Positions 20,511 through 40,129 of a stretch of DNA of 64,000 nucleotides are shown here, one piece after another (the stretch's first letter is position 1; each line of letters opens with the position of its first letter). The notes below the pieces were generated by a model. It was given only the letters and a program-made list of their open reading frames with translations, had not been told where the DNA came from and did not search any database. The position numbers and the translations under genes were made by a program. The DNA comes from Blastocystis sp. Blastoise (Eukaryota; Protista; Bigyra: Opalinata): the NCBI GenBank assembly GCA_039096225.1, contig JBBPEB010000013.1, forward strand, positions 930,001 to 994,000. Direction: 5' to 3'.

Positions 20511-22185
20511 ATTCTATATATAATATATTAAAATTAGCATAAAATAATATAGAATTAAAATAAATTAAAATTAAATAAATATTTAATATAGGAAAATAAA
20601 AAAAAAGAAAAATGTTAATGCAAACGAAAAAAAATATATATGATATTTATATACTGTTGATAACATGTTGAGTTGTTGTTTGACAGTGATTTGAGTAAGA
20701 ACCACCAAAAAGAACCTAAAAAAATTAAAAAAAAAGAAATGGAAAAAAATACCTTACCAAATAGATAGATAACAACAATTCTTTTTGACAAACACTTCTA
20801 ATAGTGACTGAGGAGACTGTTTGAACGCAGACGGGAAGCCAGAATGAAGAACCTAAAAGAATCAGATAAAAAAATAGGAAATATTCAATAAATAAATTAT
20901 GATATAATATATACCTGTATAGAAAACACCTAAGATATGCATAGCAGTAACTAGATCTGCTTGTATGCAACAAATTAAAAATAAAGATAAATTCATATTT
21001 AAAGTCAATTTTTTAGTCAAATAATAAAAATTTTCATAAAAATTCATTTTTAATTTTTTTTTTAATTTTTTATGACTCAATACTAAAGTAACAAGTTTTA
21101 ACAATTATATATTACACTATTGACACAACATTATTGTATCCCACTACTTTCAGGTTTTAAAAAAATACTCATTTTTGTTGACTCTCTGATCTATTTATAT
21201 TCTGTTCTAAAAGCTATTGATTATAACTTGAAACGTTTTTATAATACATAATTAACTCTCAAAACAACTCTTTAAAAGACTTTTCTTTGATTCTGAGGAA
21301 AAGTAGTTTTTTTATAAGTTTTGACATACTCTTTGTATGCGGAACTTTAAGTCATGATAGAATAAAATGAAAAAAGTCTTTTAAAACTCTTATGTCGTCT
21401 GATATATAATAAAATATAAATAGACTCACTTTTAAACAATAAAAATATTCCCGTAAATATTTTAAAAATTCAAAACTCTGGTCTGATTGCCCATGGAACA
21501 AATAGGCTCGGTTCAATTTTTCAATGTAAAAAAAATATAAATTTTTGACTTTTTGACTGAATTTTGGTTTTGTCCCATAGAGGTCAGCTTATTCACTTTT
21601 AATCATATATGTGACTATGAGAGGGTCTTCACTTTAAACACAACTATAAAATACTTTAAAATATTGACCCCATTATTTGTCGGAATTGCGACTTTAAAAT
21701 AAATAAAAACGTTTTGGATATTGGGTGACCCTCTGCAAATAAAAATTAATGTCAATTCTTTATTAAAATATGTCTAATAGGGTATTTGAGTCTAAATCAA
21801 AAGTCGACTTAAAAATTTTGTGAAAATTTTCATTTTTTTGCCTAAGTCTTTTTTTTCTTGAGTTTTCATTGGCTGAATCAATTTTGAACGAAAATCAACC
21901 AATCAAAAACCTTCAAAAACTCAAAAGTGCCTACCAGTGTTTGTAAATAAAAATGCTTCTCTTAAATTAAATAACTACTTTTCTAAATTATTATAATAAT
22001 CTATTAAAATATTTCTTATGTTTTAATTACTACAAAAATTTTATGTAAGCTTTATAAAGAAAATAAAAATATATTCTTGAGTATATTTTTTTCTAATAAT
22101 GACAAAAGAAATAAAAAGAATTTTAATTGGCTATGAAGAATTTGTGTTTTCAAACCACCAATCGTTTAGAGTCTAAAATAAACAG

Positions 22186-22322
22186 TTGGGTATTTCTACC
22201 AATTTTGTAAAAATTTTGGGTATTTTAACAAAAATTTTGAAAGATTTTGGGTATTTCTAACAATTCGATTTTTTTTTGGGCAGGTTAAAATAATTATGGT
22301 TTTTTTGGGTATTTCTAACAAT
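22186..22322 (+). repeat. Array of TTGGGTATTTCTAAC-like motifs at ~30-bp period, abutting the left edge of the viral element
   Basis: Copies start at 22186, 22216, 22247, 22276 (degenerate) and 22305. Confidence 0.8.
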
Positions 22323-22692
22323 GCCTCTTAATGATATCTTCATCATCTGTACAAATAGATATATTCTTCATTATATAAGTAATCATTTGCATATAATTAG
22401 CTACAGTAGTATTGGATAATCCACCTTGTTGTCCAGGAGCTTCTGTTTGTGTATGTTGCATAACATTTTGAAATTGAAATGGATCTGTTAACACTTCTAC
22501 ACAAAAGAACGGTTCTTCCATATCATCTATTTGAATTCGTTCTTCATTACGAAATTTCTTACATATTGTCTTGATCCATTTCTTCCAATTTATACTTGTT
22601 GATAATTGTATTTTCTTCCAATGTAATAATTGATCTATACAATTTGTAAAGAATTCTTCACAATCTTTATCTGAATAACCTGTTGATTGCAT
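22315..22692 (-). pseudogene. Viral ORF, possibly the N-terminal core-binding part of a truncated tyrosine recombinase
   Basis: GLSNTTVANYMQMITYIMK resembles the LSxxTxxNY helix of integrase N-terminal domains. The stop codon falls inside the flanking 30-bp repeat and the TGTTTTGTT motif is absent. Confidence 0.4.
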
Positions 22693-22759
22693 TATTAAAA
22701 ATTAAATTATTTATAAACAAAACAAATTTATTATTAATATTTTATAACATTTCATAGAA

Positions 22760-23182
22760 TTATAAATGAAGAGATTGAACAATAGAATCAACACTTATAT
22801 TTAATTTCATTAATTGAACAGCTAATTCTTGTATTGATTCATTTTGATTAGAATCAATTTCTTCTAATTCATTCAAGACTTCAGATATATGTTTGACTTC
22901 TTCTTCAATAATAGTTTGTTGTATTTTCATTGTCTTATAATAGACTTTCTTTGTTTGTGGATTACAACAATTACAATGAATATCTATATTTTTAACAATT
23001 AATTGAAAGAATTCAGTTGATTTCTCAAATAAACATTTTATAGCTTTTATAATAAATTCTAATAAAGTATTTTTCTTTTCTATTTCTTCTTCGGATAATG
23101 TGGTTGTTGTTGAACTATCTGAACTTGTTGAACTTGTACTTGATAAAGAATGTAAGGATTCAGATACAGATTTAGGCTCCAT
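22760..23182 (-). CDS. Viral hypothetical protein (Ser/Thr-rich N-terminus, HCNCC motif, coiled-coil C-terminus)
   Basis: Intact 140-aa ORF followed by the element's 3' motif at 22716-22724. Confidence 0.7.
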   Translation of the reverse strand: MEPKSVSESLHSLSSTSSTSSDSSTTTTLSEEEIEKKNTLLEFIIKAIKCLFEKSTEFFQLIVKNIDIHCNCCNPQTKKVYYKTMKIQQTIIEEEVKHISEVLNELEEIDSNQNESIQELAVQLMKLNISVDSIVQSLHL

Positions 23183-23249
23183 TTTTTAATAATTTTTAAA
23201 TGAATAATATAACAAAACATTTTTTAATTTAAATATATCATTAAAATAT

Positions 23250-25688
23250 TTATATATAAGAGATAGTTAATAAAACAACACAAGGATAATCACAAGTAAT
23301 AAAGAACATATTATCATGAGGTAATAACTTTAATAATTTACGATTACAATAATAAACATTCTTATTAATCTTATTCGATATACCTTCATATTTAATACCA
23401 TTCGAATAGTAATAAGGTAGATTTGTAGTATCAATAACATGAATATTATTCTCATATTCATTAGTAAAACATCTTAATGAAATAGGATATAAGTAATCAG
23501 TGGATTGACCATACACTGATATAATTTGTATATTTGTTAAGTATTGATAACCATAGACATTGGTTTTCTTCAATTCATAAATTAAATTCTTACTTGTACT
23601 AAAATCACAATATACTTCATCATAAGCTTTGAAACGTATATCACTACCATTCGGTTCACATATATTACAAATGATATTTCCTTTGAATAATTCATCAAAT
23701 CTTAAATCTATATGATGATCAATTGTAATTGGAGAATTTATATTACTATAAGTAACATATTTATCCGATAAAGGAAAACTAAATGTAGGATAATATGATC
23801 CATTTATATATCCAGTACATAATTTAGATGCATTTGTTTGGATCGTATCAGTATCATTCTGAATAATAATATCTTTTAAGATCTTATTCTGGATATTCAA
23901 TGTAGGATATTCAGCATAGAATTGTGTGTCTGCTGTTTGACAATTCAAACATAATTTCTTAATAGTTTCACTTGGTTGAATCGTATCTACTGTATCTGAG
24001 AATTCTAAGAATCCTCTTAAAATACAATTATTATTGAAATTCACATATTGTTTATTTTTATCAGTATATCGTATTGTAATATCTTGTATTGTATTCAAAT
24101 AAGGAGACACATTAATATTCATAATATCATGAAATTCATTATTGCCTTTATAATTATTCACATTGAATGAATATAAAGAATTCTGACTATTATCTACTAT
24201 ATTCGATTGAGCTATTAACATTCCCTTTGGACGACTACTATCAATATTATGAATACCATAATTAATAATTTCATCATGACCTAATTTATTATAACCTAAG
24301 ATTTCACCTAATTCTTGAGCTTGAGAAAAATCTATATGATAACTATCAGTATAACACTTATAATTACCATCTAAATCTAATGTATTTAAATCAACAGGTG
24401 TATCTGGTAATAATTGTTTACCATAAGATACATGCCAAGCAAAACATCCTTGTTCATCATAAACCAGATCAGGTCGTATATTATGTAGAGCACCACGATA
24501 CTTAAATAATGAATGTTCTATATCTATAGCTGTAAATGTCCATGATGTTGAATCAATATCTTGAAATGATAAATATAAAATATATCCATCCTTATCGTCC
24601 ATAGTTTGAGCATCTTTTGATATACTTAAATAATTTGTTTTAATAGTATTATTAATTGAACTTTCTAATAAATCATAGAATTCATCTTCAGTATAGTCAC
24701 CAGGAGGAACAGTGAATGTAGTGTCATAATTACCATCATATTTATTTATATGTCTAATAATCATATTATTATATTTATCTTCAACTGTAACTGTTCTTTT
24801 CATTCTATTTAATGTAATTTCTTTTTGAGGTGTAGTATACACCAATGTATTGCTATTTATTTTCAAACCAGTGAATAATTGACTTTCTAAACTGAGTATA
24901 TTACTACTTGACCAATTAAAATAAAATGTATGAGCACCATTTACTTCACAAGTTATTTTATTTTCACTATCTTGTGTTGAAACAGTATATGTTTTATAAT
25001 CATTACTTCCATTAGTAAAGAATCCATTAAATGTATAAGTTCCTGTTGTTGTAACAGGAATATTATAAGTGGTGACTTCAGGTCTATATATTGTTATAGT
25101 ATCATCATCATATTTCATCATTATTCGATTACCTACCGGGTTTTTCCATACAGCTGATACACAACATACAGCAACCCACCAAAATTCTATATCTGTATAG
25201 GTTCCTCTTGGGAAATAAAAGCCACGTCTAGTATTAGCAATTGTGAATTCACAATACCAATCATCTCTATCAATGGTTATTGTAGGGGATTCATTAATTT
25301 TGACAGTAGGATCAATATCAGGAGAATCTTTTATTACTGGTCTATCACATACATCAAAATGACATAGTTCTAATAATTGTGGAATTGAATAATTTTTCTG
25401 ATCTAAAGTGATTGTGTATACTTTATTATTTCCATTAACACGAGTATTTATATATTTGAATATTTGTGTTTTTGTGAAAGTATCAAATAGAGGCACACTT
25501 TCACTACCAATTAAATTAAGATCAATATAAGAAATGACATTTTTAGTGATATCAATAGAATTCGATAAATGTATATTGAATTGATTATCAATACAACGAA
25601 CATCAATAGGGACTACATGTGTTTTAATACGAGTATCCTTCTCTTCTAATGAAGTCTGTTCTTCATAATTATCATCATCAAGTTCCAT
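23250..25688 (-). CDS. Large minor capsid (penton)-like protein with repeated insertion domains
   Basis: Beta-rich. Three copies of a penton-like motif (LDQKNYSIPQL, FPRGTYTDIEF, VPPGDYTEDEF), then LGEILGY, IAQSNIV and IQDITIRYTDKNKQYVNFNN, which parallel the 221-aa penton. Confidence 0.6.
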   Translation of the reverse strand: MELDDDNYEEQTSLEEKDTRIKTHVVPIDVRCIDNQFNIHLSNSIDITKNVISYIDLNLIGSESVPLFDTFTKTQIFKYINTRVNGNNKVYTITLDQKNYSIPQLLELCHFDVCDRPVIKDSPDIDPTVKINESPTITIDRDDWYCEFTIANTRRGFYFPRGTYTDIEFWWVAVCCVSAVWKNPVGNRIMMKYDDDTITIYRPEVTTYNIPVTTTGTYTFNGFFTNGSNDYKTYTVSTQDSENKITCEVNGAHTFYFNWSSSNILSLESQLFTGLKINSNTLVYTTPQKEITLNRMKRTVTVEDKYNNMIIRHINKYDGNYDTTFTVPPGDYTEDEFYDLLESSINNTIKTNYLSISKDAQTMDDKDGYILYLSFQDIDSTSWTFTAIDIEHSLFKYRGALHNIRPDLVYDEQGCFAWHVSYGKQLLPDTPVDLNTLDLDGNYKCYTDSYHIDFSQAQELGEILGYNKLGHDEIINYGIHNIDSSRPKGMLIAQSNIVDNSQNSLYSFNVNNYKGNNEFHDIMNINVSPYLNTIQDITIRYTDKNKQYVNFNNNCILRGFLEFSDTVDTIQPSETIKKLCLNCQTADTQFYAEYPTLNIQNKILKDIIIQNDTDTIQTNASKLCTGYINGSYYPTFSFPLSDKYVTYSNINSPITIDHHIDLRFDELFKGNIICNICEPNGSDIRFKAYDEVYCDFSTSKNLIYELKKTNVYGYQYLTNIQIISVYGQSTDYLYPISLRCFTNEYENNIHVIDTTNLPYYYSNGIKYEGISNKINKNVYYCNRKLLKLLPHDNMFFITCDYPCVVLLTISYI

Positions 25689-25778
25689 ATTTTCTAATTT
25701 ATTAAATTATAATTTATATTAATTTATAAAAATTATTTAATTTTATTTATTTATTAATATTTTTTTATTTAAAAAAAA

Positions 25779-27272
25779 ATGAGAATCTTAAGAATTAAAG
25801 ATAATATTCCTATTCAAAGCAATACTGATATTCTATCTAGTCCTTATATCTTTCAATATCATTGGACTAATGTGGATAATACTTATATCAATTTCAATCA
25901 ATCCTATTTGGATCTTACTGTCAAGGCAACTGTAACAGATAAAGCTGGACCAGTTTCTGTTTATTTAGATGAAACAGGTACTTCTGCTAGTTTCACCTAT
26001 GATCAATTATGTCAATATTTCTTGGATCAATTAGTTCAAAAAGCTAATATTTATTCTATTATTGATACTACTGATGTTGAAATGGTTTATACATTACCTG
26101 ATGGATCTGATCGTGCTTTAAAATATGAAGAAAATTGTACACATGCTTCACGTGGTCGTAAAATGATATTATTAAAAGATATTAGTAAAAATGATTTAGA
26201 AAAATCTATGTATGGTGAAGATTTATCTGCAGATACTTATGAATTGAATTCTATTCGTTATATACGTGCACATCCAAATGAATCTATTCATATTGCTATT
26301 CCTTTATATCTTATTAGTGGTTTAGGTGTTGATGGAGATTCTTTAATATTAACTAAACATTTCAATATGTTATTTAGAACTAGTACTATTGAATCATTAA
26401 TTGATAATAAAATGAGTATTTATTTCAAGAATGGTACTGCTACCAAAACTACCGAATGGTTACATTTAGATGATGAAAAATGGTTTAGTACATTCAAGAT
26501 TGAATCAGCTACTATGAATTTAATGACTTATAAAGATATTCAGTTCCAATCGAATGAATTATATAAAACTATACCTACATGTATTCAAGTTGATTATCAA
26601 AATACAAGATTAACTACTAATCATTTCAATATCAATAGAGCTTTACCATTTATACCTGAATATATATTATTTTGGTTTACAAATGGGTATAGTTCAACAA
26701 CTATTAGTAATATAGCTAGTCCAAATGTATGGCCAACATATCAAAGTTGTTTGATTGGTGATGTTCAAATGTTCCCTCAAACTGAATTCCCTACTCAAAT
26801 GTATTATCATAATCTTACTACAAAAGGTCATGTCTTCAATAATGCAGAAACTACTAGTTTATCTTGTCCTAATAAGAATTTATATTGTTTATGGGCTGAT
26901 AATTCAAATCCTGAAACTATTCTTAAATATGATGAATGGATTAAACATCCTATTTATATTATTCCAACAAAATCATTAATGAATATCCAATCAGATAGTG
27001 GTATTGAATTGAATTTCGATTGTAATGTTGATGTTCATGATGTTAAATATGAACATATTGATTCATCCACTGTTCCTGATGGACAAACGTGTCAATGGAA
27101 AAGTTACGTTGATCCAACAGATAAAAAGACAAAATATCATTGGGAAGCTGATACTGCCTCTTATAAGGTAGCTTCTCATGCTGGTATTTATAAACATACT
27201 ACTACTGATCTAAGTGATAGTTCTCCTTATACCTTACATATGATTGCTGTACGTAGTGTGCGTGATATTTAA
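25779..27272 (+). CDS. Double-jelly-roll major capsid-like protein, paralogue 1
   Basis: YINFNQSYLDL, IAIPL, PEYILFWF and HPIYIIP resemble Polinton/PLV MCP patterns. Colinear with the next ORF and adjacent to the penton and ATPase. Confidence 0.7.
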   Translation: MRILRIKDNIPIQSNTDILSSPYIFQYHWTNVDNTYINFNQSYLDLTVKATVTDKAGPVSVYLDETGTSASFTYDQLCQYFLDQLVQKANIYSIIDTTDVEMVYTLPDGSDRALKYEENCTHASRGRKMILLKDISKNDLEKSMYGEDLSADTYELNSIRYIRAHPNESIHIAIPLYLISGLGVDGDSLILTKHFNMLFRTSTIESLIDNKMSIYFKNGTATKTTEWLHLDDEKWFSTFKIESATMNLMTYKDIQFQSNELYKTIPTCIQVDYQNTRLTTNHFNINRALPFIPEYILFWFTNGYSSTTISNIASPNVWPTYQSCLIGDVQMFPQTEFPTQMYYHNLTTKGHVFNNAETTSLSCPNKNLYCLWADNSNPETILKYDEWIKHPIYIIPTKSLMNIQSDSGIELNFDCNVDVHDVKYEHIDSSTVPDGQTCQWKSYVDPTDKKTKYHWEADTASYKVASHAGIYKHTTTDLSDSSPYTLHMIAVRSVRDI

Positions 27273-27447
27273 ATTTAATATTTCTTACTTACTATTCTTA
27301 ACGTTAACTTGTTTAATTAATTCTATTCTATTCTATAATACAATCATTTGTTTTGTTATAAAAAATAAAATTAATTAATAATTATAAAATATTATTATTT
27401 TTTTATTTTTATTTTGTTAAAAAAATATATAAACCATAATTATTAAT

Positions 27448-28671
27448 ATGGAAGGATTCCCAAGACAATTCTTACCTTCAAAGGCAAATCAAACTATTAA
27501 ACCTGTACAAATTCCTATTCTAGTTTCTACAAGTCAAGATTTATTAAATCAACCTTATCCATTTGAATTCTTATATAATTCAGTGGATAGCCCTTATATT
27601 GATTTCAGTAATTCATTCTTAGAACTGAATTTCAATATTACTGGTACTAGAGACAAAAATTCAACATCTTCAGTTGTACAACATTCTAATATCTATAGTA
27701 TTATTGATAAGATTACTACAGATCTTACGTTTGTATCTCCTACGGGTCAAGATATTCTTATTAATTATTCTGAATCTTCTATTGAATCCAGTAAAGCAAG
27801 AAAATTTGTTACTATTAAAGAATTAAGTAAAGATGAAATTGATAAATCTATGTATAGTATGACAGAATGCTTATATAATAACACGTTGAGTAGTATTGCT
27901 GGAATGGAAATGAAAGAAAAAGCTCAAGTTATTATTCCTTTATCTCTTATTACTGGTCTTGGTACATTTGATTGTGCTATTAAAGTAAAATCTTTGAAGA
28001 TGCAATTCGTTACAAATTATTTAAAGAATCTATTTACCGGTACCACTGTAATCACTGCATTGAAATTTGATCGTGTTTATATTCATCTTCAACAAATTTA
28101 TGATATTAATTTTGGTAATGATCCACGTGCTTTGATTAAATGTATTCCTAATAATTGTCAGATATCTGCATTCACTACACCTGTTTATTCACAAGCATCA
28201 GTATCAGGTACACCAACTCCACAACAATTCTTATCCAATAGAAGTGTTGTTTTCGTACCTGATTATTGTATGTTATACTTCACAAATCAAGAGAAGAGCA
28301 TGATTCCTATTAAAACTGAATTATTAAAATCATGTCAATTCCAAATTGGTGGTCAAAATATCTTACCTAAGACGGATTTCCCTACTACGTATAAAACAAC
28401 GAATCCATCACAAATTATTCCTAATGCTATGCTTTATAATACTTGGAGATGTAATAGTCATCCTCAATCTCCTTTAAATGGTGAAAAGTGGTATGAACAA
28501 CCTATTTATATATTCCCTATTTCAAGTGTTGTTGATGTCAATACGCGTAGTGGTTGTGAAGTTAATATCTCATTATTAACTGAATATACTGGTGGAACTG
28601 TTACTGGTCCTTATACTTTATATGCTCATTTTATATTTGTTAAATTTGTTAGAGATGGTGCTACCAATTAA
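27448..28671 (+). CDS. Double-jelly-roll major capsid-like protein, paralogue 2
   Basis: YIDFSNSFLEL, NIYSIID, VIIPLSLITGLG, PDYCMLYFTN, QPIYIFP. At 407 aa it has a typical MCP length. Confidence 0.75.
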   Translation: MEGFPRQFLPSKANQTIKPVQIPILVSTSQDLLNQPYPFEFLYNSVDSPYIDFSNSFLELNFNITGTRDKNSTSSVVQHSNIYSIIDKITTDLTFVSPTGQDILINYSESSIESSKARKFVTIKELSKDEIDKSMYSMTECLYNNTLSSIAGMEMKEKAQVIIPLSLITGLGTFDCAIKVKSLKMQFVTNYLKNLFTGTTVITALKFDRVYIHLQQIYDINFGNDPRALIKCIPNNCQISAFTTPVYSQASVSGTPTPQQFLSNRSVVFVPDYCMLYFTNQEKSMIPIKTELLKSCQFQIGGQNILPKTDFPTTYKTTNPSQIIPNAMLYNTWRCNSHPQSPLNGEKWYEQPIYIFPISSVVDVNTRSGCEVNISLLTEYTGGTVTGPYTLYAHFIFVKFVRDGATN

Positions 28672-28769
28672 TTTATTTATTTGATATTTTTATTATTTGT
28701 ATCAACTTTATATTATTCTAAAAAAATATTGTTTTGTTTATAATTTCATAATTAATTCATTTAATAAAA

Positions 28770-29435
28770 ATGACATCAATATCTCATCTAAGTAAAATTA
28801 CAAGTCAAATCTGTCATGAACAATTCAATTATACTTTGGATTTAGTAGGTAAAAATATTACTCATATCAATACATTAGTGAATACAAGTGATATCATTAA
28901 TATCCCATCTTTCAGAATAACTGAAAATAATGCAACAGCACATACATTTCCAGCTGGTAACTATTCATTGGAAGAATTCTTTGAGAAATTAATTGAACTT
29001 GGTAAGAAGATGACAATATCTGTATCTGGACAAACGAGTGCATTCTATTATGATAAAGAAACAAAAACATTTGGTACGTATAGTGGATTCAGAAGAAGTC
29101 TTAGTAATAAAGAATTCTTTTATTATTTAGGATTAGATGATGAATACTTTAATACACCAATTACTTACAGTGATGAATATATATCTAATAATATTTCATG
29201 GTATAAGATCTATATGTTACGTGTGTATTGTGATATTATTAATAAAGATAATGATTTGATTTCTATTCCTTTATATGCTAAACAAGGATTTGATAATACA
29301 TTTGCTTTAAGTGATTTATCTATTCCATGTATTGATGGTAAATATACAGATATCCAATGGGAAATATATGATCAATTAAATAATCCAATTGATTTATCAA
29401 ATACAAATCTTTATATATACTTTACTGCATCTTAA
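28770..29435 (+). CDS. Minor capsid (penton) protein, single jelly roll
   Basis: FPAGNYSLEEF, LRVYCDII and IYDQLNNPIDL resemble Polinton/PLV minor-capsid signatures. It lies between the MCP and the ATPase. Confidence 0.7.
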   Translation: MTSISHLSKITSQICHEQFNYTLDLVGKNITHINTLVNTSDIINIPSFRITENNATAHTFPAGNYSLEEFFEKLIELGKKMTISVSGQTSAFYYDKETKTFGTYSGFRRSLSNKEFFYYLGLDDEYFNTPITYSDEYISNNISWYKIYMLRVYCDIINKDNDLISIPLYAKQGFDNTFALSDLSIPCIDGKYTDIQWEIYDQLNNPIDLSNTNLYIYFTAS

Positions 29436-29504
29436 TAAAATCATTTATTTATCTTTAACTTATCATTAATTATTTTTTGTTTTGTTGATTAAAATCATAT
29501 AAAA

Positions 29505-30542
29505 ATGGTGAATAAAATAAATCCATTAAAAGAAACACGTAAAGGATGTGGAGTCTTAGAATTTAAATATGGAAAATCCCATCATAAAACATATGAATCA
29601 AAATTTATATTGATTATTGCAAGAACATTCTCAGGTAAATCTTTCTTAACTGTGAATCTCTTATGTTCTATGGATCTTAAGAATAAATATAAACAAGTCA
29701 CAGTAATTTGTCCTGATGCATCCAATAAAAATGAATGTTATACATCCTTTCAAGATATTTGTGAACATGCTGGAATTGATTATAAATGGTATGATTCTGT
29801 AGATGATAAATTTAAAAAGATTAAGACTGTTGATGAATTAGTCAATACATATAAATTACCAGAACATAATTTCATTGTATTGGATGATATCTATCCATTA
29901 TCTAGACAAACCAAACAATTGATTGTATCTATATTATCTAAAGGTCGTCATTATAAACAGAATGCTATTATATGTCTTCAAAGTCATACAGATGTTACCA
30001 ATCAATCTATATTAAGTCAAGTATCTCATTTCTTTATTAATAGTCAAATCTTAAAACGTGATCCTGGATTCTTACCAGATAAATTGAAGATTATGCCATC
30101 AAATCTAAATGAAATTCTTACAGATGAAGAATTAATGAATGATCCACATCAATTCTTTATGTTAAAACAAGGTAGTGATGATTTAACGATATGGACTAAT
30201 CCTGATTGTGGTAGTAAACAGAATGTATATAAGATGGTAAAGAAACGTAAATGGACAGAAGAAGATAGTGAAAAAGAGAAACGAGAAGAACAAGGTGAAG
30301 TATCAGGTAGTGGTATTAAACGTCCTAATGAACATATATCTACATATGAAAAGAAAATGAAGAAGTTTTTACCTGTTGAAGAAGAAGTCTCATTGAAAGG
30401 TATTGAACGAGATGAAAAAGATAAACCTAAAGAATCTATCTTACAAATCATACAAGATCAAATCATACAAGATAGTCAACGACGCATTTTCAATCCTTAT
30501 TTAAATAAAAAACATTATTCTGGTTATCCATCTTTTCATTAA
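29505..30542 (+). CDS. A32-like (FtsK/HerA superfamily) DNA-packaging ATPase
   Basis: Walker A ILIIARTFSGKS, Walker B FIVLDD and the A32 motif KGRHYKQNAIICLQ. Confidence 0.92.
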   Translation: MVNKINPLKETRKGCGVLEFKYGKSHHKTYESKFILIIARTFSGKSFLTVNLLCSMDLKNKYKQVTVICPDASNKNECYTSFQDICEHAGIDYKWYDSVDDKFKKIKTVDELVNTYKLPEHNFIVLDDIYPLSRQTKQLIVSILSKGRHYKQNAIICLQSHTDVTNQSILSQVSHFFINSQILKRDPGFLPDKLKIMPSNLNEILTDEELMNDPHQFFMLKQGSDDLTIWTNPDCGSKQNVYKMVKKRKWTEEDSEKEKREEQGEVSGSGIKRPNEHISTYEKKMKKFLPVEEEVSLKGIERDEKDKPKESILQIIQDQIIQDSQRRIFNPYLNKKHYSGYPSFH

Positions 30543-30594
30543 TTTTTTATATTTTAATTTATTATATAAACCATAATTATTTTATTGTTTTGTT

Positions 30595-31632
30595 ATGAGT
30601 TCAATTACAAAAAGATATTTAAAACAAAATTGTGATCCACGATTATTTGGAGGATCACCACCAAAATCAAATAGACGTGATCTTTATCATAAACGTTATG
30701 TAAGATATGGAGGAACTGGTTTTGAAGAAATTGTTAGACAACAAACTAGAGATGCTGATTGGGCTGATTTTAAAAATGGTGTCTATACTGCATTACCTAT
30801 TTTAGGTACATTAGGAGCATTTGCTGGATATAATTATTATCAGAAAAGAAAAGAAAATAAACGTAAAGAAAAAGAAAAAGAAGAAAAGAAAAGACAATTT
30901 GAAGAACATATTGAAGATGCTAATAGAGATGATGAATTATATAATGATGATGCTACTTATCAACCAAAGAGAATAACAAGAAAAATGATGGCTGATGATG
31001 ATAAAGATTATAATAATGCAAATCTTGAAGATGAAAATTATGATGATATATTTGGTCAAGGTACCCATAGAAGGCATCAGAAACATCGTAAAGAACATGG
31101 GAGTCACCGAGAAAAAGAAAAGAAAACAAGTAAATTCGTAACTCCTCAAATAAAAATTATTGCTAAGAAGTCTATTCGTTCTAGTAATGTAAAGTCTAAT
31201 AGAAAGAAATTACAAGATATAAAAGAACGATTACCTAAAAATGATGAGCATGTGTCTGTACGTGATATTGTTAATGTCGTTATCGATAAAGAATATCCTA
31301 TGGATCCAAAACAAAAGCACTCTATTATTGCTAATACTGCTATTAAAACTATTAAAACGATTGTTCCTATTGTAGTGAATGCATTAAAATACTATTATCC
31401 TTCTCTTGGTATCCCTATTGATTTCGCTTATAATATGATTACTACCGATGATGATAAGAAACGTAAAGAAACTGCTGATAACTACTTTAAAAATCCTAGT
31501 GGAAGTGGTGTTACAAAAGAGAATGCTGAACGTTGTGGTGGTGCTCTTGTCAACTCTACATCCTTTGATACTACTACTAATCTAATTATTAATCTTGTTC
31601 AATTCTTCTTAAAAAAATTCCATTTAAATTAA
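30595..31632 (+). CDS. Viral protein with a hydrophobic/TM-like segment and charged tracts (possible core or membrane protein)
   Basis: VYTALPILGTLGAFAGYNYY followed by a K/E/R coil, with several GG/GxG sites. Intact and followed by the 3' motif. Confidence 0.7.
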   Translation: MSSITKRYLKQNCDPRLFGGSPPKSNRRDLYHKRYVRYGGTGFEEIVRQQTRDADWADFKNGVYTALPILGTLGAFAGYNYYQKRKENKRKEKEKEEKKRQFEEHIEDANRDDELYNDDATYQPKRITRKMMADDDKDYNNANLEDENYDDIFGQGTHRRHQKHRKEHGSHREKEKKTSKFVTPQIKIIAKKSIRSSNVKSNRKKLQDIKERLPKNDEHVSVRDIVNVVIDKEYPMDPKQKHSIIANTAIKTIKTIVPIVVNALKYYYPSLGIPIDFAYNMITTDDDKKRKETADNYFKNPSGSGVTKENAERCGGALVNSTSFDTTTNLIINLVQFFLKKFHLN

Positions 31633-31708
31633 TTATTTTAACTTTTATTATTTCATAATTAATTATTTGTTTTGTTATATAATTATTTTTAAATTAATAC
31701 AATAAATA

Positions 31709-32887
31709 ATGCAAAGTAATTTAGGAGATAGTGTAACTCTCTATGATATTTTATCAAGAAATCAGAAAAAACAATCTTGGGATCCATGGTTACCCAATTC
31801 ATATATTTGTCAAGATGAACAACCTGTACAACCATTAGCACATGATCCTAATGCACAAGGATCTATGTATAGTTCAATGGCAGTTCAAGCATTAAGAAAT
31901 CATGGTCAATCACCTGAAGATATGTTTATAGCTACTATGAATTCAGCTAAAGCTAATGGAGATACTGCAAGATACTCATCTATGTTATCTCAATGGCAAA
32001 CGAATTATGGTGTACCTACTACCAGTAAGATATGGTATGATGCTAGTAATCCTAATAATTATCAATATGAAACATTATTATCTTCAATAAAAGGCTTAAA
32101 TGGATTGAATTCAGAAGCATATAAACAGAATAAAGAGAATTATGAATTCTATTCAAATGCTCAAAAAGATATGTATGATCAATTAAATAATATTTCATAT
32201 CAAATTAAAACCAATAATGATGACATACATGCTGAAGCAGCTTCAATGAAACAAAATATGACTAGTAATTATGAAAATCTACATAAAGATAACGAATATT
32301 TGAACTCAAAGATGGATACATATGAAAATAATCGTCAATCAGATAATAATATTACAAACTCTAAAATGGATACATATGAAAATAATCGTAAAAAAGATGT
32401 TAACAATACAAATTCAAAGATGGATAAATATGAAAATAATCGTCATCAAGACTATAACAATACACAATCTAGAATGGATAAATATGAAAAGAATCGTCAA
32501 AATGATACTAATAAAACAAACGCTAAGATGGATAATTATGAAAGTAACCGTAAAAAAGATGCCAAAGCATTTGAAGATAAGATGGATGAACAAGGTATGC
32601 ATTATGATATTGTTGAAAGTGGTATACCATTCACAATTTATGTTAATGGTAAGAACTCAAAAGTAATATGTAATAATCCAGAGTTTAAAGATCAGGTATT
32701 CATTCTTAAAGATGAAAAAATTTATGTTAGATCAGCTGAAAAGTCAGGCTATATATATAAAACGTACGGAACAATGCCACTTGATGAATTCATTATCAAA
32801 TATAATGAAGGTTTATTTAATGAAAATAAGGCACTTCCTGATAAAGAACATAGTGGATTAAGAAATCAGCAAAACGATGAAACTTAA
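31709..32887 (+). CDS. Viral coiled-coil protein with 18-aa tandem repeats (possible fibre/stalk)
   Basis: NSKMDxYENNRxxDxNxT occurs 5-6 times (54-bp period, ~32300-32590), followed by a beta-rich C-terminal domain. Confidence 0.7.
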   Translation: MQSNLGDSVTLYDILSRNQKKQSWDPWLPNSYICQDEQPVQPLAHDPNAQGSMYSSMAVQALRNHGQSPEDMFIATMNSAKANGDTARYSSMLSQWQTNYGVPTTSKIWYDASNPNNYQYETLLSSIKGLNGLNSEAYKQNKENYEFYSNAQKDMYDQLNNISYQIKTNNDDIHAEAASMKQNMTSNYENLHKDNEYLNSKMDTYENNRQSDNNITNSKMDTYENNRKKDVNNTNSKMDKYENNRHQDYNNTQSRMDKYEKNRQNDTNKTNAKMDNYESNRKKDAKAFEDKMDEQGMHYDIVESGIPFTIYVNGKNSKVICNNPEFKDQVFILKDEKIYVRSAEKSGYIYKTYGTMPLDEFIIKYNEGLFNENKALPDKEHSGLRNQQNDET

Positions 32888-33012
32888 TAGACTATATTAT
32901 ATTTGATTATTTATGCAATATTATGTTTGCCATTTAAATTATAATTTTGTTAATATATATATATATATTTTTTGTTTTGTTTTAAAAATCATAATTATTT
33001 TATTAAACTAAA

Positions 33013-34503
33013 ATGATACAAAGTGCTCGTTTAAATGTTTCAAATAAAGGATTAGTAGGCGTAAATCATCGTGCTACTGGTCATGAATATCGAAATTATA
33101 TTGTTCCAGGATCTATTCCTGATGGAGAAAAACGTTATCCAATTAATTATTCTATTGCTCCAAATTCATTATTTGCTGTTAAAAAAATTGAAAGTAATAT
33201 GGTTAATAGAGCAACGTCAAATCCATTCTATTCATATTTGTCAGAAACTAGACAAGATGTTATACAAAATTCATTAGAAGAATCAGAAGAAAGTGAACCA
33301 ATAGATGAAGGATCTGGGCTATTACCTGATGGTAGAATTCCAAAGAACTTTACAAGAAAACTTATTTATGCTCATGATTATGTCTTACCTTATATGAAAC
33401 AAAATCATATGTCTGATTATTCTAAATATTCTAGATTATTAAATCCTCGTACAATTGATAGTGCTATTGATTTTACTAAAAGAGATCGTGATGGTTACTT
33501 ATATTCTAGAGGTGGTAATTTATTTTCTAATATTTATCACACTGTAAGTGATGTATACAATGTGTCTGATAAATTAACTGGAGGTATTAATAACATCACT
33601 CATGGAATAAGTAATGCTGTTGATTATGGTGCAAATAAATTCAAAGATCTCAAGAATTGGTGGAGAGATATTAATGTTGATCCAAAAGAAGGATTCAATG
33701 ATATTAAAGGAAAACTTGTAAGTGATAGAAATAATTTATATGATAATTGGAAATTAACTAATGATAATGAAGCTAAGAAAAAGAATAAAATATTAGCTGA
33801 TAACTATTTTAGATTTGCTCATATGTCAGGTAATGATACTAAAGAACAAAGACTTAACAAAAGTAAATCTTTAGAAGATCAAGCAAAAACATTTCATAAT
33901 AATTATATTCCCTATGCAGAAAACCCAACATTCGTTAATAAAGTTGTTAATACTGCAACAAATGTATCAAAACCTGTGTATAATGGTGTTAAGAAAGTTG
34001 CAAACTCTGTTGTTAGTGGTGTAAAGAATTTATTTAATACCTTTTCTGGATATTACTATGGTAAAAACCCAGAGGACGAAATACCACAAACAGAAAATTC
34101 AATAGAAACAAATAATAATGTTATACCAACTTCTTCATCTACTCCTGATAATCTAACACAAGAAAATATTCATAATATTACTATTGAAGATTCAAATCCT
34201 CCAAATTTAATTCCTCTTATGAATGATCCTACTGTTCCTTTACCTGACACTGTTCCAATGTCTCAAGCAATAACGAATAAATTCACTCCAAATATTACAC
34301 CTGTAGCCCCTATTCCTAATCCAGTAGAAAATGTCACTCTTGAAAATAATAATAAAAGAAATAAAAAAGAAGATGATGAATTTCAATCATTTGATGAAGA
34401 TGATGGTGAGGTATTTTATGATCTCGAAGAAGGTAATGGATTACGTAGAAAAAGACGTATTTCAAAAAATAAAAAATTAAGAAATAAACGTAGAAAACAT
34501 TAG
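33013..34503 (+). CDS. Viral core-like protein, copy 1 (amphipathic helices, acidic then very basic C-terminus)
   Basis: 496 aa; RGGNLFSNIYHTVSDV...KNWW; ends EEGNGLRRKRRISKNKKLRNKRRKH. Confidence 0.75.
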   Translation: MIQSARLNVSNKGLVGVNHRATGHEYRNYIVPGSIPDGEKRYPINYSIAPNSLFAVKKIESNMVNRATSNPFYSYLSETRQDVIQNSLEESEESEPIDEGSGLLPDGRIPKNFTRKLIYAHDYVLPYMKQNHMSDYSKYSRLLNPRTIDSAIDFTKRDRDGYLYSRGGNLFSNIYHTVSDVYNVSDKLTGGINNITHGISNAVDYGANKFKDLKNWWRDINVDPKEGFNDIKGKLVSDRNNLYDNWKLTNDNEAKKKNKILADNYFRFAHMSGNDTKEQRLNKSKSLEDQAKTFHNNYIPYAENPTFVNKVVNTATNVSKPVYNGVKKVANSVVSGVKNLFNTFSGYYYGKNPEDEIPQTENSIETNNNVIPTSSSTPDNLTQENIHNITIEDSNPPNLIPLMNDPTVPLPDTVPMSQAITNKFTPNITPVAPIPNPVENVTLENNNKRNKKEDDEFQSFDEDDGEVFYDLEEGNGLRRKRRISKNKKLRNKRRKH

Positions 34504-34577
34504 TTAATTTTAATTTGTTTTATTTATTATTATTTTTAAAAACTAAACAATTTGTTTTGTTATTAATAAAAATTAAT

Positions 34578-34745
34578 TTAAAAATCAATAAATTTTTTTA
34601 TATAATCTTCATAATCATCTTCACTTTCAGTTTTAATAGTATCCACTTCAGAATCACTATCACTTAATTCATCAACTTCAAAATTTCCATAAGGTTTCCA
34701 AGTACCTTCTTTATGATATGGAGCAAATTGCTTTGGAGAATTCAT
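34578..34745 (-). CDS. Small acidic protein (55 aa), copy 1
   Basis: MNSPKQFAPYHKEGTWKPYGNFEVDELSDSDSE...FIDF; frame is conserved in copy 2. Convergent with the 496-aa ORF across a bidirectional AACTAAACAA/TGTTTTGTT site. Confidence 0.55.
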   Translation of the reverse strand: MNSPKQFAPYHKEGTWKPYGNFEVDELSDSDSEVDTIKTESEDDYEDYIKKFIDF

Positions 34746-34790
34746 AATAAATAGTATAAAAATAGAAAAAAACGAATAATACAATTTATT

Positions 34791-34840
34791 ATTCTAGAAT
34801 GTTCTAGAAGTTTCGAGAATGTTCTAGAATGTTCTAGAAA
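34791..34840. promoter_or_regulatory. Perfect heat-shock-element array (5 x nTTCnnGAAn)
   Basis: attctagaat gttctagaag tttcgagaat gttctagaat gttctagaaa = 10 alternating pentamers with no mismatch. Confidence 0.75.
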
Positions 34841-35442
34841 ATTTATATTTTCCATAACGGTTACCCTTGTTTCCAAAAGTCTCTCGTTATAATCGTGGTG
34901 GTGGGTACATCTTTTTACAAGACCACACCACCACCAGCTTTTCTTTCACCCACTATAAATACATACCTTGATCACTTTACTCTTTTTATATAAATTTTTT
35001 TTATGATTATCATGACTTTTTATATTATTTATTGATCACTATACATACATTTTTATTTTTATATATTCCCGTGATTATTTTTATTATTTCTTTTTAGATA
35101 GAACCATCCATTTCATCTTTTCTCTATATAAAGGGAGGGTCGGGGTGTGTGTTTATTTAGCACATTCTGTGCTTCTTTTCGTATTTCTTTCTGTATTCCC
35201 GTGATTATTTTACTCACTTTACCAACGATGGAGCCATTTTCCATGAATATTTCCTGTAAAGGGGAGGGTTGGACTGTGTATTTTATTTCTTTTATGATTA
35301 CTATGAGTTTCTCCTTGATCACTTTACGTTTCACGTTGGAATCGGAACACAAATAAATTAAAAATAAATAAACATGGGAAAAAATAAATACACACACACA
35401 CTACCCTACACTCCCATGGTTATTTTACTTCAGAAATGTTAT

Positions 35443-35561
35443 TAATTCTTCCGTCGAGAACAAAAAGGGGGTTGTCTTCCCCGCTTATGGCTGCGCGCGT
35501 CGCGCAGACTCTATGCGGGGTTTGCATACCCCCTTCTGCAGTTCGAAGAACGGAAGAATTA
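35443..35561. other. Nested GC-rich imperfect palindrome (long hairpin), copy 1
   Basis: Stems TAATTCTTCCGT/ACGGAAGAATTA, AAGGGGGT/ACCCCCTT, CCCCGC/GCGGGG and CTGCGCG-cgt-CGCGCAG. Confidence 0.9.
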
Positions 35562-35577
35562 TTATTATTAATTTAAA

Positions 35578-37068
35578 ATGATACAAAGTGCTCGTTTAAA
35601 TGTTTCAAATAAAGGATTAGTAGGCGTAAATCATCGTGCTACTGGTCATGAATATCGAAATTATATTGTTCCAGGATCTATTCCTGATGGAGAAGAACGT
35701 TATCCAATTAATTATTCTATTGCTCCAAATTCATTATATGCTGTTAAGAAAATTGAAAGTAATATGGTCAATAGAGCAACATCCAATCCATTTTTCTCCT
35801 ATTTATCAGAAACCAGACAAGATATTATACAAAGTTCCTTAGAAGAATCAGAAGAAAGTGAACCAATAGATGAAGGATCTGGGTTATTACCTGATGGTAG
35901 AATTCCGAAGAACTTTACAAGAAAACTCATTTATGCTCATGATTATGTCTTACCTTATATGAAACAAAATCATATGTCTGATTATGCTAAATATTCAAGA
36001 TTATTAAATCCTCGTACAATTGATAGTGCAATTGATTTTACTAAAAGAGATCGTGATGGTTATTTATATTCTAGAGGTGGTAATTTATTTTCTAATATTT
36101 ATCACACTGTAAGTGATGTATACAATGTGTCTGATAAATTAACTGGAGGTATTAATAATATCACTCATGGAATAAGTAATGCTGTTGATTATGGTGCAAA
36201 TAAATTTAAAGATCTCAAGAATTGGTGGAGAGATATTAATGTTGATCCAAAAGAAGGATTCAATGATATTAAAGGAAAACTTGTAAGTGATAGAAATAAT
36301 TTATATGATAATTGGAAATTAACTAATGATAATGAAGCTAAGAAAAAGAATAAAATATTAGCTGATAACTATTTTAGATTTGCTCATATGTCAGGTAATG
36401 ATACTAAAGAACAAAGACTTAACAAAACTAAATCTTTAGAAGATCAAGCAAAAACATTTCATAAAAATTATATTCCCTATGCAGAAAACCCTACATTTGT
36501 TAATAAAGTTGTTAATACTGCAACAAATGTAGGAACACCAATTGTTAATGGTGTTAAGAAAGTTGCAAACTCTGTTGTTAGTGGTGTAAAGAATTTATTT
36601 AATACCTTTTCTGGATATTACTATGGTAAAAACCCAGAGGACGAAATACCACAAACAGAAAATTCAATAGAAACAAATAATAATGTTATACCAACTTCTT
36701 CATCTACTCCTGATAATCTAACACAAGAAAATATTCATAATATTACTATTGAAGATTCAAATCCTCCAAATTTAATTCCTCTTATGAATGATCCTACTGT
36801 TCCTTTACCTGACACTGTTCCAATGTCTCAAGCAATAACGAATAAATTCACTCCAAATATTACACCTGTAGCCCCTATTCCTAATCCAGTAGAAAATGTC
36901 ACTCTTGAAAATAATAATAAAAGAAATAAAAAAGAAGATGATGAATTTCAATCATTTGATGAAGATGATGGTGAGGTATTTTATGATCTCGAAGAAGGTA
37001 ATGGATTACGTAGAAAAAGACGTATTTCAAAAAATAAAAAATTAAGAAATAAACGTAGAAAACATTAG
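35578..37068 (+). CDS. Viral core-like protein, copy 2
   Basis: 496 aa, with about a dozen amino-acid differences from copy 1. Confidence 0.75.
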   Translation: MIQSARLNVSNKGLVGVNHRATGHEYRNYIVPGSIPDGEERYPINYSIAPNSLYAVKKIESNMVNRATSNPFFSYLSETRQDIIQSSLEESEESEPIDEGSGLLPDGRIPKNFTRKLIYAHDYVLPYMKQNHMSDYAKYSRLLNPRTIDSAIDFTKRDRDGYLYSRGGNLFSNIYHTVSDVYNVSDKLTGGINNITHGISNAVDYGANKFKDLKNWWRDINVDPKEGFNDIKGKLVSDRNNLYDNWKLTNDNEAKKKNKILADNYFRFAHMSGNDTKEQRLNKTKSLEDQAKTFHKNYIPYAENPTFVNKVVNTATNVGTPIVNGVKKVANSVVSGVKNLFNTFSGYYYGKNPEDEIPQTENSIETNNNVIPTSSSTPDNLTQENIHNITIEDSNPPNLIPLMNDPTVPLPDTVPMSQAITNKFTPNITPVAPIPNPVENVTLENNNKRNKKEDDEFQSFDEDDGEVFYDLEEGNGLRRKRRISKNKKLRNKRRKH

Positions 37069-37142
37069 TTAATTTTAATTTGTTTTATTTATTATTATTT
37101 TTAAAAACTAAACAATTTGTTTTGTTATTAATAAAAATTAAT

Positions 37143-37310
37143 TTAAAAATCAATAAAATTTTTTATATAATCTTCATAATCATCTTCACTTTCAGTTTGA
37201 ATAGTATCCACTTCAGAATCACTATCACTTAATTCATCAACTTCAAAATTTCCATAAGGTTTCCAAGTACCTTCTTTATAATATGGAGCAAATTGCTTTG
37301 GAGAATCCAT
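37143..37310 (-). CDS. Small acidic protein (55 aa), copy 2
   Basis: MDSPKQFAPYYKEG...; paralogue of 34578-34745. Confidence 0.55.
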   Translation of the reverse strand: MDSPKQFAPYYKEGTWKPYGNFEVDELSDSDSEVDTIQTESEDDYEDYIKNFIDF

Positions 37311-37355
37311 AATAAATAGTATAAAAATAGAAAAAAAAGCATAATACAATTTATT

Positions 37356-37395
37356 ATTCTAGAAGTTTCGAGAATGTTCTAGAATATTCTAGAAA
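37356..37395. promoter_or_regulatory. Perfect heat-shock-element array (4 x nTTCnnGAAn), copy 2
   Basis: attctagaag tttcgagaat gttctagaat attctagaaa. Differences from copy 1 fall only at n positions or in unit number. Confidence 0.75.
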
Positions 37396-38135
37396 ATTGA
37401 TATACATGCCGCCACATAAAACCACTGGAACACAATTAGTTTCTCCAGTTTCCCCATAATAATTGTGCTTTTGTGTTCCAAAATCCCTCATTTTTACAAT
37501 TTTAAGCAATTTGATTGGACAATTCACGATGACGCATCCTATTTCCATAACGGTCACCCTTGTTTCCAAAAGTCTCTCGTTATAGTCGTGGTGGTGGGTA
37601 CATCTTTTTACAAGACCACACCACCACCAGCTTTTCTTTCACCCACTATAAATACATACCTTGATCACTTTACTCTTTTTATATAATTTTTTTTATGATT
37701 ATCATGACTTTTTATATTATTTATTGATCACTATACATACATTTTTATTTTTATATATTCCCGTGATTATTTTTATTATTTCTTTTTAGATAGAACCATC
37801 CATTTCATCTTTTCTCTATATAAAGGGAGGGTCGGGGTGTGTGTTTATTTAGCACATTCTGTGCTTCTTTTCGTATTTCTTTCTGTATTCCCGTGATTAT
37901 TTTACTCACTTTACCAACGATGGAGCCATTTCCTATGAATATTCCCTGTAAAGGGGAGGGTTGGACTGTGTATTTTATTTCTTTTATTATTACTATGAGT
38001 TTCTCCTTGATCACTTTACGTTTCACGTTGGAATCGGAACACAAATAAATTAAAAATAAATAAACATGGGAAAAAATAAATACACACACACACTACCCTA
38101 CACTCCCATGGTTATTTTACTTCAGAAATGTTATT

Positions 38136-38252
38136 AATTCTTCCGTCGAGAACAAAAAGGGGGGATGTCTTCCCCGCTTATGGCTGCGCGCGTCGCGCAG
38201 ACTCTATGCGGGGTTTGCATACCCCCTTCTGCAGTTCGAAGAACGGAAGAAT
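38136..38252. other. Nested GC-rich hairpin, copy 2; probable right end of the viral element
   Basis: Same nested stems. Similarity between the copies stops at the outer stem. Confidence 0.85.
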
Positions 38253-38517
38253 ATAATAATATATGTGGATATTTCTATATTTTAACATATTTATGTTTAA
38301 ATTGAATTTTTCTGTATTTTTTTGAAAATAATCCTAAAAACACATATATTGTTTATTATTAGTATTGTTTTATGTATAGTTATTACTCTAGATGTCAATA
38401 TTATATATTATATATATTATTTTCTAATCATTAAACAAAGAATGACGCAGCAATCGTCAGGATCGCCATTTAAAAAGATTTCATTTTCATTTTTTATTAT
38501 TTTTTGTATATTTAATA

Positions 38518-39978
38518 ATGTCTAATAACAAAGATTTGGTGTATAATTCACCTACCAGAATGAATAGTAAACCCCAAAAAAGTCAAAAAAAATATGAAAA
38601 AGTATATCAACAATTTCGAAAGTTTTTAGATGCCAATAATTTTGACTCTGAAGAAGTTGGAATTGAGAAATATATGATGTATTTGCATAGAAGAAAAAAC
38701 TTAAACCCAAGAACAATCAAAACAATATATTCCATATTGAAGGTCTCAATTACTGATGAATCACAAAGAATGATTGATAGTTCACTTAATGAAAAGATTA
38801 ATAGATGGATAAATAATCAGAATAGAGTTTCACCTCCTCCTAAGCAAGCAGCTGTCTTTCCATTCCAGAAGATGATAGATTACCTAACGATTAAATCAAG
38901 TGATCTAAGTACGATTCAATTACAAGCAGCCATGTGTCTTGCAATTGCTGGTGGTTGCCGATGTGAGGAGCTACACTGTATGCACTATAATGATTTAAAG
39001 GTAGTTTATTATTATTATTATTATTATATAGAGATAAATATATAGATATATAAGTATATATAGTGGTCATCAGATAAATTAGAAGTAACAATTCGTTCAT
39101 CAAAGGTTGATCAATGTGGAAAAGGCTTTTCCTTCTATGTTCTGAACTCATCAAGTTCACATGTTAGCTTTTATAACATAATAAAGACTTATTTCGATCA
39201 CTTACTACCAATTGCTGATCAAAACCCATCCCTTTTTATTTGTGTAAGAAACGGAAAATTCATCAGACAGCCAGTAGGTATAAATACATTATATATGTTT
39301 CCTTCTAAAATAGCTACACTTCTTAATCTTGAGAATAGTAAGGATTTTACTGGTCATTCATTCAGAAGAACGTTTGCAACAATAATGGCTTCTAAGGGTT
39401 TTAGTACTTTTGAGATTATGAAAGCTGGTCGCTGGGCATCTGCTGATACAGCAAAAAGGTATATTGACTATACCCAAATAGCGAAGTTTAAATCTGCAGC
39501 TGCATTTGCCTTTAATGATATTTTAAAGCCTAATAATATTATTTGTGATAGTAACATGGATCAATTAAGTAATGATGAATCAGTTGAAAGCTATTCAAAT
39601 CATTATGCAGGAAAATCTACAGTAATTGAAGGATCATATTCAAAAGAAGTAGGTAGTTTAGATCGAGAAACCAAGAATACTGTTAATACAACTTGTTCTT
39701 TACATGCTGCTGATGTTTCAATGGAACAGATGATGGAATGGCAACATCGGACATATGAATTACTATTCAAGAATCAATTAGATCAATTTAGCTCTCTTAA
39801 TCAGTCTTATGTTAGTCTTGCTGAAAGATTCTTGAACCGTTTAGATCATGTACATAATGATTCAAGGTTGTCTCACTCAACCAATATTGTAGAACCTAAA
39901 GAAAAACCCTCTGGAGCAACACAGGTAACCATACGAAAGCTTGATTTTTCTGATTCTGACGATTCATTCCGTATCTAA
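38518..39978 (+). CDS. Tyrosine recombinase, Crypton/DIRS-like, two exons (38518-39000, 39064-39978; 465 aa)
   Basis: GT-AG intron 39001-39063 joins the two ORFs in frame. Catalytic set is complete: GCRCEE (R), SKVDQ (K), GHSFRR (HxxR), GRW (W), RYI (Y). Confidence 0.93.
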
Positions 39979-40045
39979 TCTATATATATGTTTTATTAGT
40001 AACAAATATTATGCGGGTTTATATTGGTAATATGTTAATATTATA

Positions 40046-40092
40046 CTAGGGTCACGCCGCAGGTCCGGGGCCTAACGGCACCGGACCGCGGC
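40046..40092 (-). mobile_element. Helitron-like 3' terminus (GC hairpin followed by CTAG|T)
   Basis: Minus strand: GCCGCGGTCCGG-tGCCgttaGGCc-CCGGACC(t)GCGGC-gtgacc-CTAG-T. No 5' end or RepHel gene identified. Confidence 0.6.
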
Positions 40093-40129
40093 TGCATAAA
40101 ATAATAACAGTTTGGCTTTTATTTTCTTT

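Follow-up and report, generated by a model that had tools for sequence, protein, structure and literature searches.

Gene content of the island and its genomic copies

We analysed a 64,000-nucleotide stretch of the Blastocystis sp. Blastoise genome (contig JBBPEB010000013.1; hereafter the window, to which all coordinates refer), focusing on an island at 22330-38262 that is probably an integrated virus. The island holds 10 intact intronless open reading frames (ORFs) of 140-812 aa, together with two 55-aa ORFs (Table 1), and 93% of positions 22330-34503 are coding. ATG-initiated ORFs of at least 200 aa numbered nine in the island (15.9 kb), none at 13-22.3 kb and one at 40-64 kb (one in 33 kb of flank), and 0 in each of 30 shuffles; the contrast in GC content was small (27.3% in the island versus 26.3% in the right flank). 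Read by eye, the flanks consist of intron-broken host genes (purine biosynthesis, zinc finger), with short exons amid TA-rich introns. A first-pass annotation of this DNA had described intact, intronless viral ORFs in an intron-rich, Blastocystis-like host. The ORF counts agree with such an island, and near-identical NCBI proteins carry the name Blastocystis sp. Blastoise; the description as intact holds for 10 ORFs and fails for the leftmost one, which corresponds to codons 1-121 of a 598-aa protein. Over 27440-32930, read run X1 yielded 11 short contigs of low depth, whereas none came from X2 and X3; the type of these runs was guessed, and they are not evidence of expression.

Table 1 Features of the island, in window coordinates
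Feature	Position	Strand	Remarks
5' 121 codons of predicted viral tyrosine recombinase (598 aa elsewhere), broken	22330..22692	-	Marks left truncation
140-aa ORF, Ser/Thr-rich start, coiled-coil end	22760..23182	-	Pfam matches sub-threshold; exact sequence absent from protein collection
812-aa beta-rich protein, candidate penton/fibre-type minor capsid protein	23250..25688	-
497-aa second double jelly-roll capsid protein, paralogue	25779..27272	+	Fold predicted from homology
407-aa double jelly-roll major capsid protein	27448..28671	+	AlphaFold2 fold, structure searches
221-aa candidate penton (single jelly roll)	28770..29435	+	Assigned by position, size and sequence pattern
345-aa packaging-type P-loop ATPase, A32/FtsK-HerA-like motifs	29505..30542	+
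345-aa basic protein, one hydrophobic stretch, candidate core/membrane protein	30595..31632	+	19% K+R; cluster n = 18
392-aa protein with 18-residue coiled-coil repeats	31709..32887	+
496-aa protein, basic C-terminal tail, candidate core protein, first copy	33013..34503	+
55-aa acidic ORF, directly downstream of pentamer array	34578..34745	-	Second copy 37143-37310; open in both copies
Array of 10 alternating TTC/GAA pentamers	34792..34839		Second copy 37357-37394, 8 pentamers
720-bp non-coding terminal region ending in hairpin, first copy	34849..35568		98.3% identical to 37542-38262
Tandem second copy of last gene and terminal region	35557..38262	+	97-98% identical, ~138 extra bases
129-nt imperfect terminal hairpin, right end of element	38131..38259		-38.9 kcal/mol, z -8.5, 0/200 shuffles

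Locus tags revealed 19 annotated clusters with a single gene order in addition to the copy at 22330-38262, distributed over 13 contigs of 0.53-2.16 Mb; the resulting count of at least 20 copies was taken from the listed cluster members. Within the genome, copies of the ATPase differ by only 0-4 of 345 residues, in keeping with the recent activity suggested in the first-pass annotation, and older subfamilies (45-69% identity) are present too. The copies are mosaic and interrupted by other transposons, including a CACTG-ended repeat that also flanks the copy at 22330-38262. That the island is contamination, or a free virus or phage wrongly joined to a host contig, is very unlikely, to the point of being barely tenable, because at least 20 syntenic and slightly different copies lie on 13 megabase-scale contigs; furthermore, copies are broken by the same CACTG-ended repeat, and the phage collection gave no match.

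Capsid, packaging and recombinase genes

Structure prediction, which the first-pass annotation had proposed for each ORF, returned a double jelly-roll (DJR) fold for the 407-aa protein (AlphaFold2 with a 38-sequence alignment; pLDDT 83.6, pTM 0.83, compared with a pLDDT of only 33 from the single sequence). In Foldseek searches, Sputnik (3j26) ranked first in the PDB (E 1.8e-12), and 'MELD virus sp.' A0A8S5L5M3 ranked first, far ahead, in BFVD (TM 0.70, E 5.6e-19, 13% identity). The top 16 matches of a full structural search (VIA) were all DJR capsids (Z 19.5 to 8.4, with unrelated folds at 7.2 or below); PBCV-1 (8h2i; Z 19.5, rmsd 5.6, 326 aligned), faustovirus, mavirus and Sputnik fell at Z 19.5-17.6, leaving virophages tied with other DJR capsids. 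Independently, the Atlas placed the protein near virophage clusters (TM 0.70), and by sequence there was no match to the virophage capsid Pfam family. The modelled fold of the 407-aa protein is thus that of a DJR capsid, the capsid type that marks Polisuviricotina, and together with the conserved motifs of the ATPase described below it bears out the earlier proposal of a divergent, Polinton-like endogenous virus.

The 497-aa protein shares 31% identity with the 407-aa protein over their alignment, and its relatives gave E 1e-101 to 1e-95 against the capsid profile. When 21 chosen capsid sequences were placed in a tree, the two types formed separate groups (support 99/99), each with host-genome and metagenomic members, which indicates that the pair is old; both paralogues were retained in all lineages sampled. 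Judged by sequence, the 497-aa protein is an ancient paralogue of the 407-aa capsid. A capsid profile search of 1.84 billion proteins gave 12 matches, all family members or fragments except for a distant 403-aa protein (E 2e-9) and a low-complexity chance match, so that this capsid lineage is isolated. The search reached no known Polinton-like virus (PLV) capsid by name.

The 345-aa ATPase retains ARTFSGKS, FIVLDD, GRH and CLQS in eight of eight aligned sequences, with Ala replacing the first Gly of Walker A. We take these to be the P-loop, Walker B, GRH and Gln motifs, and their combination to be of A32 type. The protein matched a head-and-packaging family in PHROGs (E 1.2e-10) and, in Pfam, FtsK_SpoIIIE at E 0.051 only. 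The two penton candidates, of 812 and 221 aa, have a short 'T.P.G.Y...EF' stretch in common (pairwise E 0.002-0.018). One L-x-G-G site, presumably the adenain-type cleavage consensus, is found in each of the proteins at 30595-31632 and 33013-34503, a weak hint at a protease in complete elements.

The leftmost 125-aa ORF clusters with 20 other sequences (21 in total), 598 aa long in 12 of the 14 others listed, and its identity to the 598-aa protein ends at codon 121, that is, at window position 22330. Full-length versions have 163 homologues; among the 120 listed, CARNDY and DTKN occur in 120, and D(I/M)IRH and MLHS...Y in 119, so that the R, K, RH, H and Y motifs are present in 119-120 of 120. 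The Atlas structure reached TM 0.71-0.79, depending on the target, against viral tyrosine-recombinase clusters, and 0.61 against bacterial integrases. On its modelled fold and motifs, the 598-aa family protein is a tyrosine recombinase, which gives the family the integrase that characterises endogenous Polisuviricotina, albeit broken in the copy at 22330-38262. The first-pass annotation had missed this integrase, of which the leftmost ORF is the 5' end; it had also overlooked that there is a second capsid gene, that the family is multi-copy, and that the element has a terminal hairpin and regulatory motifs. Its suggestion that the element might be left-truncated is shown directly, because the recombinase is cut at codon 121 here and is full length in other copies. 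In line with its statement on missing genes, searches of 22330-38262 with Pfam and PHROGs turned up no pPolB, primase-helicase, protease or RVE integrase, which is a weak test, since both libraries missed the capsids as well. A protelomerase role for the recombinase received no support from its Atlas neighbours, and the literature search found nothing linking polinton-like elements to protelomerases. PF00589 was found in 0 of 3 giant-virus records.

Transposon traffic likely caused the damage on the left, because another copy (P0153) has its recombinase joined to the same CACTG end sequence as that of the 7.85-kb element described below. The left flank was also considered as a decayed recombinase remnant, and this was rejected, as tblastn and HMM searches showed no trace. 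Directly adjoining the break, at a TTAA, is a 390-bp segment (21940-22329) with four GGGTATTT(C/T)TA repeats, possibly the end of a TTAA-targeting transposon, for which no second end was found; a CATAATTATT motif within it also occurs upstream of three viral genes, which is not significant against shuffles. Beyond it lies a 7.85-kb element (14089-21939) with CACTG terminal inverted repeats (12 bp-plus) and a TTT target duplication, enclosing intron-rich host-like sequence. By family name it is presumably CACTA/EnSpm-like.

Terminal region and putative regulatory motifs

The right 5 kb of the island is a tandem duplication comprising the last gene and the terminal region. The two last-gene copies show 20 synonymous and 12 non-synonymous codon differences, arranged in patches, and the second protein is 3 residues away from another genome copy and 12 from its tandem neighbour; in sequence, the second tandem copy looks like a recombinant from another family member. 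Similarity between the two terminal-region copies ends at the 129-nt hairpin, the first copy of which, at 35431, has a folding energy of -36.0 kcal/mol. Only the right end survives; no counterpart of its sequence was found on the left side, and Rfam gave one chance match only over 34400-42500.

The intact genes share a motif on their 3' side. In the window, TGTTTTGTT occurs 12 times against 1.0 expected, and 10 of the 12 occurrences lie on the coding strand 30-85 nt behind the stops of the 10 intact ORFs. A promoter role was rejected, as the motif follows the last gene too and is absent before the two first genes. The motif resembles TGTTTGTT, the downstream element that Blastocystis uses at a distance of four bases from the poly(A) site, on its 3' side (PMC4159000). 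Such host-type 3' signals argue against a virophage of cytoplasmic factories, and the helper-dependent option in the first-pass annotation has no positive support. A TGTTTAGTT variant was seen after the stop of the 55-aa ORF.

Next to this ORF, the pentamer pattern gave seven matches in the window, all of them within the two arrays, and 0 in 100 shuffles; the triplets are invariant and the spacers variable. The alternating TTC/GAA pentamers match the heat shock element (HSE) consensus. The array might act as a host heat-shock-factor (HSF) switch that induces the provirus under stress, a speculative idea that we consider possible but on balance doubtful; it is only a lead, because a plain tandem repeat can give the same pattern and a host HSF is not established. 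The literature search returned nothing on a heat shock element with a virophage. Three IMG/VR contigs (339-733 kb; L001, L003 and L004) also match the HSE-like pattern, and L001:5990-6080 is an eight-fold 10-bp tandem array.

Reconstruction of the element and comparison with known viruses

Taking these results together, we consider it probable that 22330-38262 represents one copy, truncated on the left, of an integrated DNA virus that Blastocystis carries in many copies, with two DJR capsid genes, likely its own tyrosine recombinase for integration and excision, and likely host-nuclear transcription. Host Pol II would transcribe each gene on its own, with the transcript ending at the Blastocystis downstream element, and the ATPase would package DNA into a shell built from one capsid type or from both. 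The recombinase would excise and insert the element at the terminal region, where the hairpin could be a recombination site and/or a replication primer. The copy at 22330-38262 would have lost the ability to excise itself, which would leave it two roles only: being mobilised or providing capsid proteins in trans.

Relatives on ENA/Logan contigs are 55-63% (capsid), 76-80% (ATPase) and 58-59% (recombinase) identical to the Blastoise proteins. The lengths of the longest contigs fall into two groups of 8 values each, at 23.5-24.1 kb and at 25.9-27.5 kb; none is longer, and most others are shorter fragments. In the copy at 22330-38262, 14,665 bp lie between the recombinase stop position and the first copy of the hairpin; if the relatives are representative, 9-13 kb are thus unaccounted for, leaving room for a replicase. 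The complete genome may be ~24-27 kb long and may encode, left of the recombinase, a replicase other than pPolB, of primase-helicase or PolA type. Such a replicase in the lost left arm is predicted by published couplings, as tyrosine recombinases accompany PolA/AEP replicases (10.64898/2026.10.13.758929) and terminal palindromes accompany non-pPolB elements (10.64898/2026.07.28.741278); a primase-helicase has been located between recombinase and terminus (PMC11296320).

The length of these relatives, whose genes are of similar size, also bears on whether the complete element could be a replicase-less satellite of ~15 kb, copied from the hairpin by host polymerases or by a helper (a pPolB MELD virus or a giant virus). 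It fits a satellite that no replicase was seen, with locus-tag maps empty beyond the recombinase, that the terminal hairpin is strong, that the nearest neighbours of the capsid are Sputnik in the PDB and virophage clusters in the Atlas, and that Blastocystis data contain a MELD virus with pPolB (PMC8502044). However, contigs of 23.5-27.5 kb exceed the size of such an element, the host-type 3' motif and the HSE-like array suggest nuclear host transcription, and a study confined to egoviruses found no gene flux between them and Blastocystis (10.1101/2024.03.23.586382). We regard the satellite as improbable.

Metagenomic conservation, in turn, speaks to whether any virion is made. Two ATPase sequences occur on 134 and 94 contigs, respectively. 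Many independent metagenomic contigs carry capsid, ATPase and recombinase in intact form and at 55-80% identity, and both capsid paralogues are kept in every sampled lineage. This renders a virion-less transposon, that is, a tyrosine-recombinase element spreading within the genome with capsid genes that no longer form particles, a distinctly remote alternative, even though the element is known here from its genes, with a protease not seen and a penton unconfirmed, and its copies are mosaic and struck by other transposons. No related loci were found in IMG/VR scans with capsid, recombinase, ATPase and P0145 queries, nor in the JGI metagenomes, GTDB genomes and phage records scanned.

Several results weigh against the integrated, autonomous virus that we favour. 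Replicase, protease and left end were not seen in the left-truncated copy, and the size estimate stems from relative contigs that may include host flanks, the relatives being ~60% identical. The Atlas model of the recombinase is mediocre (pTM 0.50), Pfam barely detects the protein (E 0.048 in 2 of 10, over the matching stretch), and NCBIfam gave no match. For the 345-aa ATPase there was no significant A32 profile or structure match; neither penton candidate is confirmed, with nothing in Pfam, PHROGs or PDB for the 221-aa protein and no match in PDB or Pfam for the 812-aa protein. The nearest solved capsid by Foldseek belongs to a virophage (Sputnik), and a plain 10-bp tandem repeat could produce the pentamer array. 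TGTTTTGTT is also one T longer than the published TGTTTGTT, and host genes of tortoise-isolate Blastocystis are reported not to be enriched for the element (PMC10690189). The AT-rich, low-complexity host seems to belong to this tortoise-isolate group; given this reported lack of enrichment, the 3' signal of the virus may stem from a different host lineage or may be a GU-rich element of optimal form. A more far-reaching version of our reading, namely a widespread, autonomous, nucleus-replicating and hairpin-ended Blastocystis virus family, common in gut metagenomes but so far without annotation, with a twin-capsid shell, HSF induction and a poly(A) signal from other lineages that marks host-to-host movement, seems unlikely.

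The closest parallels are tyrosine-recombinase PLVs (Polisuviricotina), such as entomopoxvirus-associated PLVs and Gezel-14T (PMC11296320) and endogenous PLVs, which are integrated across protists (PMC10120064). They share with the island family the DJR capsid, a packaging-type ATPase (by its motifs in the island family), a recombinase near one end, the 15-30 kb size class and many integrated copies in protist genomes. Unlike these, the island family has an isolated capsid sequence, two conserved paralogues and a host-type 3' motif per gene, with replicase and protease unseen. Viruses of this broad kind are already known in Blastocystis from the Blastocystis MELD virus (Starrett et al. 2021), whose genes include pPolB and an integrase of retroviral type (PMC8502044, section 3.4) and which is named again in 10.1101/2022.05.25.493380. 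It has in common with the island family the host genus and virion proteins unrecognisable by sequence; it differs in its polymerase and integrase, the island family being marked instead by a tyrosine recombinase and a hairpin end. The BFVD match 'MELD virus sp.' may be the same virus as the Blastocystis MELD virus. Virophages (Sputnik, mavirus; Virophaviricetes) and Gosseviruses are close in capsid structure, and endogenous virophages with terminal palindromes have been described (10.64898/2026.07.28.741278). In contrast to virophages, the island family has a capsid without a virophage Pfam match, host-nuclear-looking signals and, in the truncated copy, no visible protease. The island family works like a tyrosine-recombinase PLV, and we place it in none of Polintoviricetes, Aquintoviricetes and Virophaviricetes; it is not filed in the first of these because its integrase is a tyrosine recombinase.

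No description of a recombinase-bearing, twin-capsid Blastocystis family was found in the available portions of the literature searched, although bioRxiv supplements could list one, and the part of the PMC8502044 supplement that was searched held no match to the family. In Table S1 of the PMC10120064 protist screen, as far as it was available, 10 Blastocystis assemblies have an empty entry in a count column, assumed to give capsid matches, versus 285 for Proteromonas. The family described here shows recent activity in one Blastocystis genome, and its relatives are found on hundreds of public contigs; if those contigs derive from gut Blastocystis, the family would be a second such clade. HSF induction, if true, would be a eukaryotic counterpart of the stress induction of prophages. 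A recombinase with a defined terminal site is also a possible genetic tool for Blastocystis.

Other repeats surround the island. A separate Crypton-like tyrosine recombinase gene (38518-39978, + strand) lies 256 bp right of the viral hairpin and has one 63-nt GT-AG intron and an open second exon. It was rejected as the viral integrase, as it is outside the hairpin, has a host-style intron and the virus has its own; hhalign found no similarity between it and the viral recombinase. Cryptons have been recorded in other stramenopiles (PMC3212892). Farther right, at 41133-42338, a 488-bp unit is tandemly repeated in diverged form (74%) within sequence that holds no genes and lacks the host TA microsatellites; together with the nested elements, this looks like a repeat-accumulating, possibly centromeric, region. 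On the minus strand, 40047-40100 contains a GC-rich hairpin followed by CTAG and then T (z -5.8), resembling what we take to be a Helitron 3' end, and adjoins a 7/14-bp AT tandem array (40100-40470). Finally, kilobase-long, purine-rich GAA/GAT low-complexity tracts without a long clean frame run on opposite strands at 500-2400 (+) and 8700-12700 (-).

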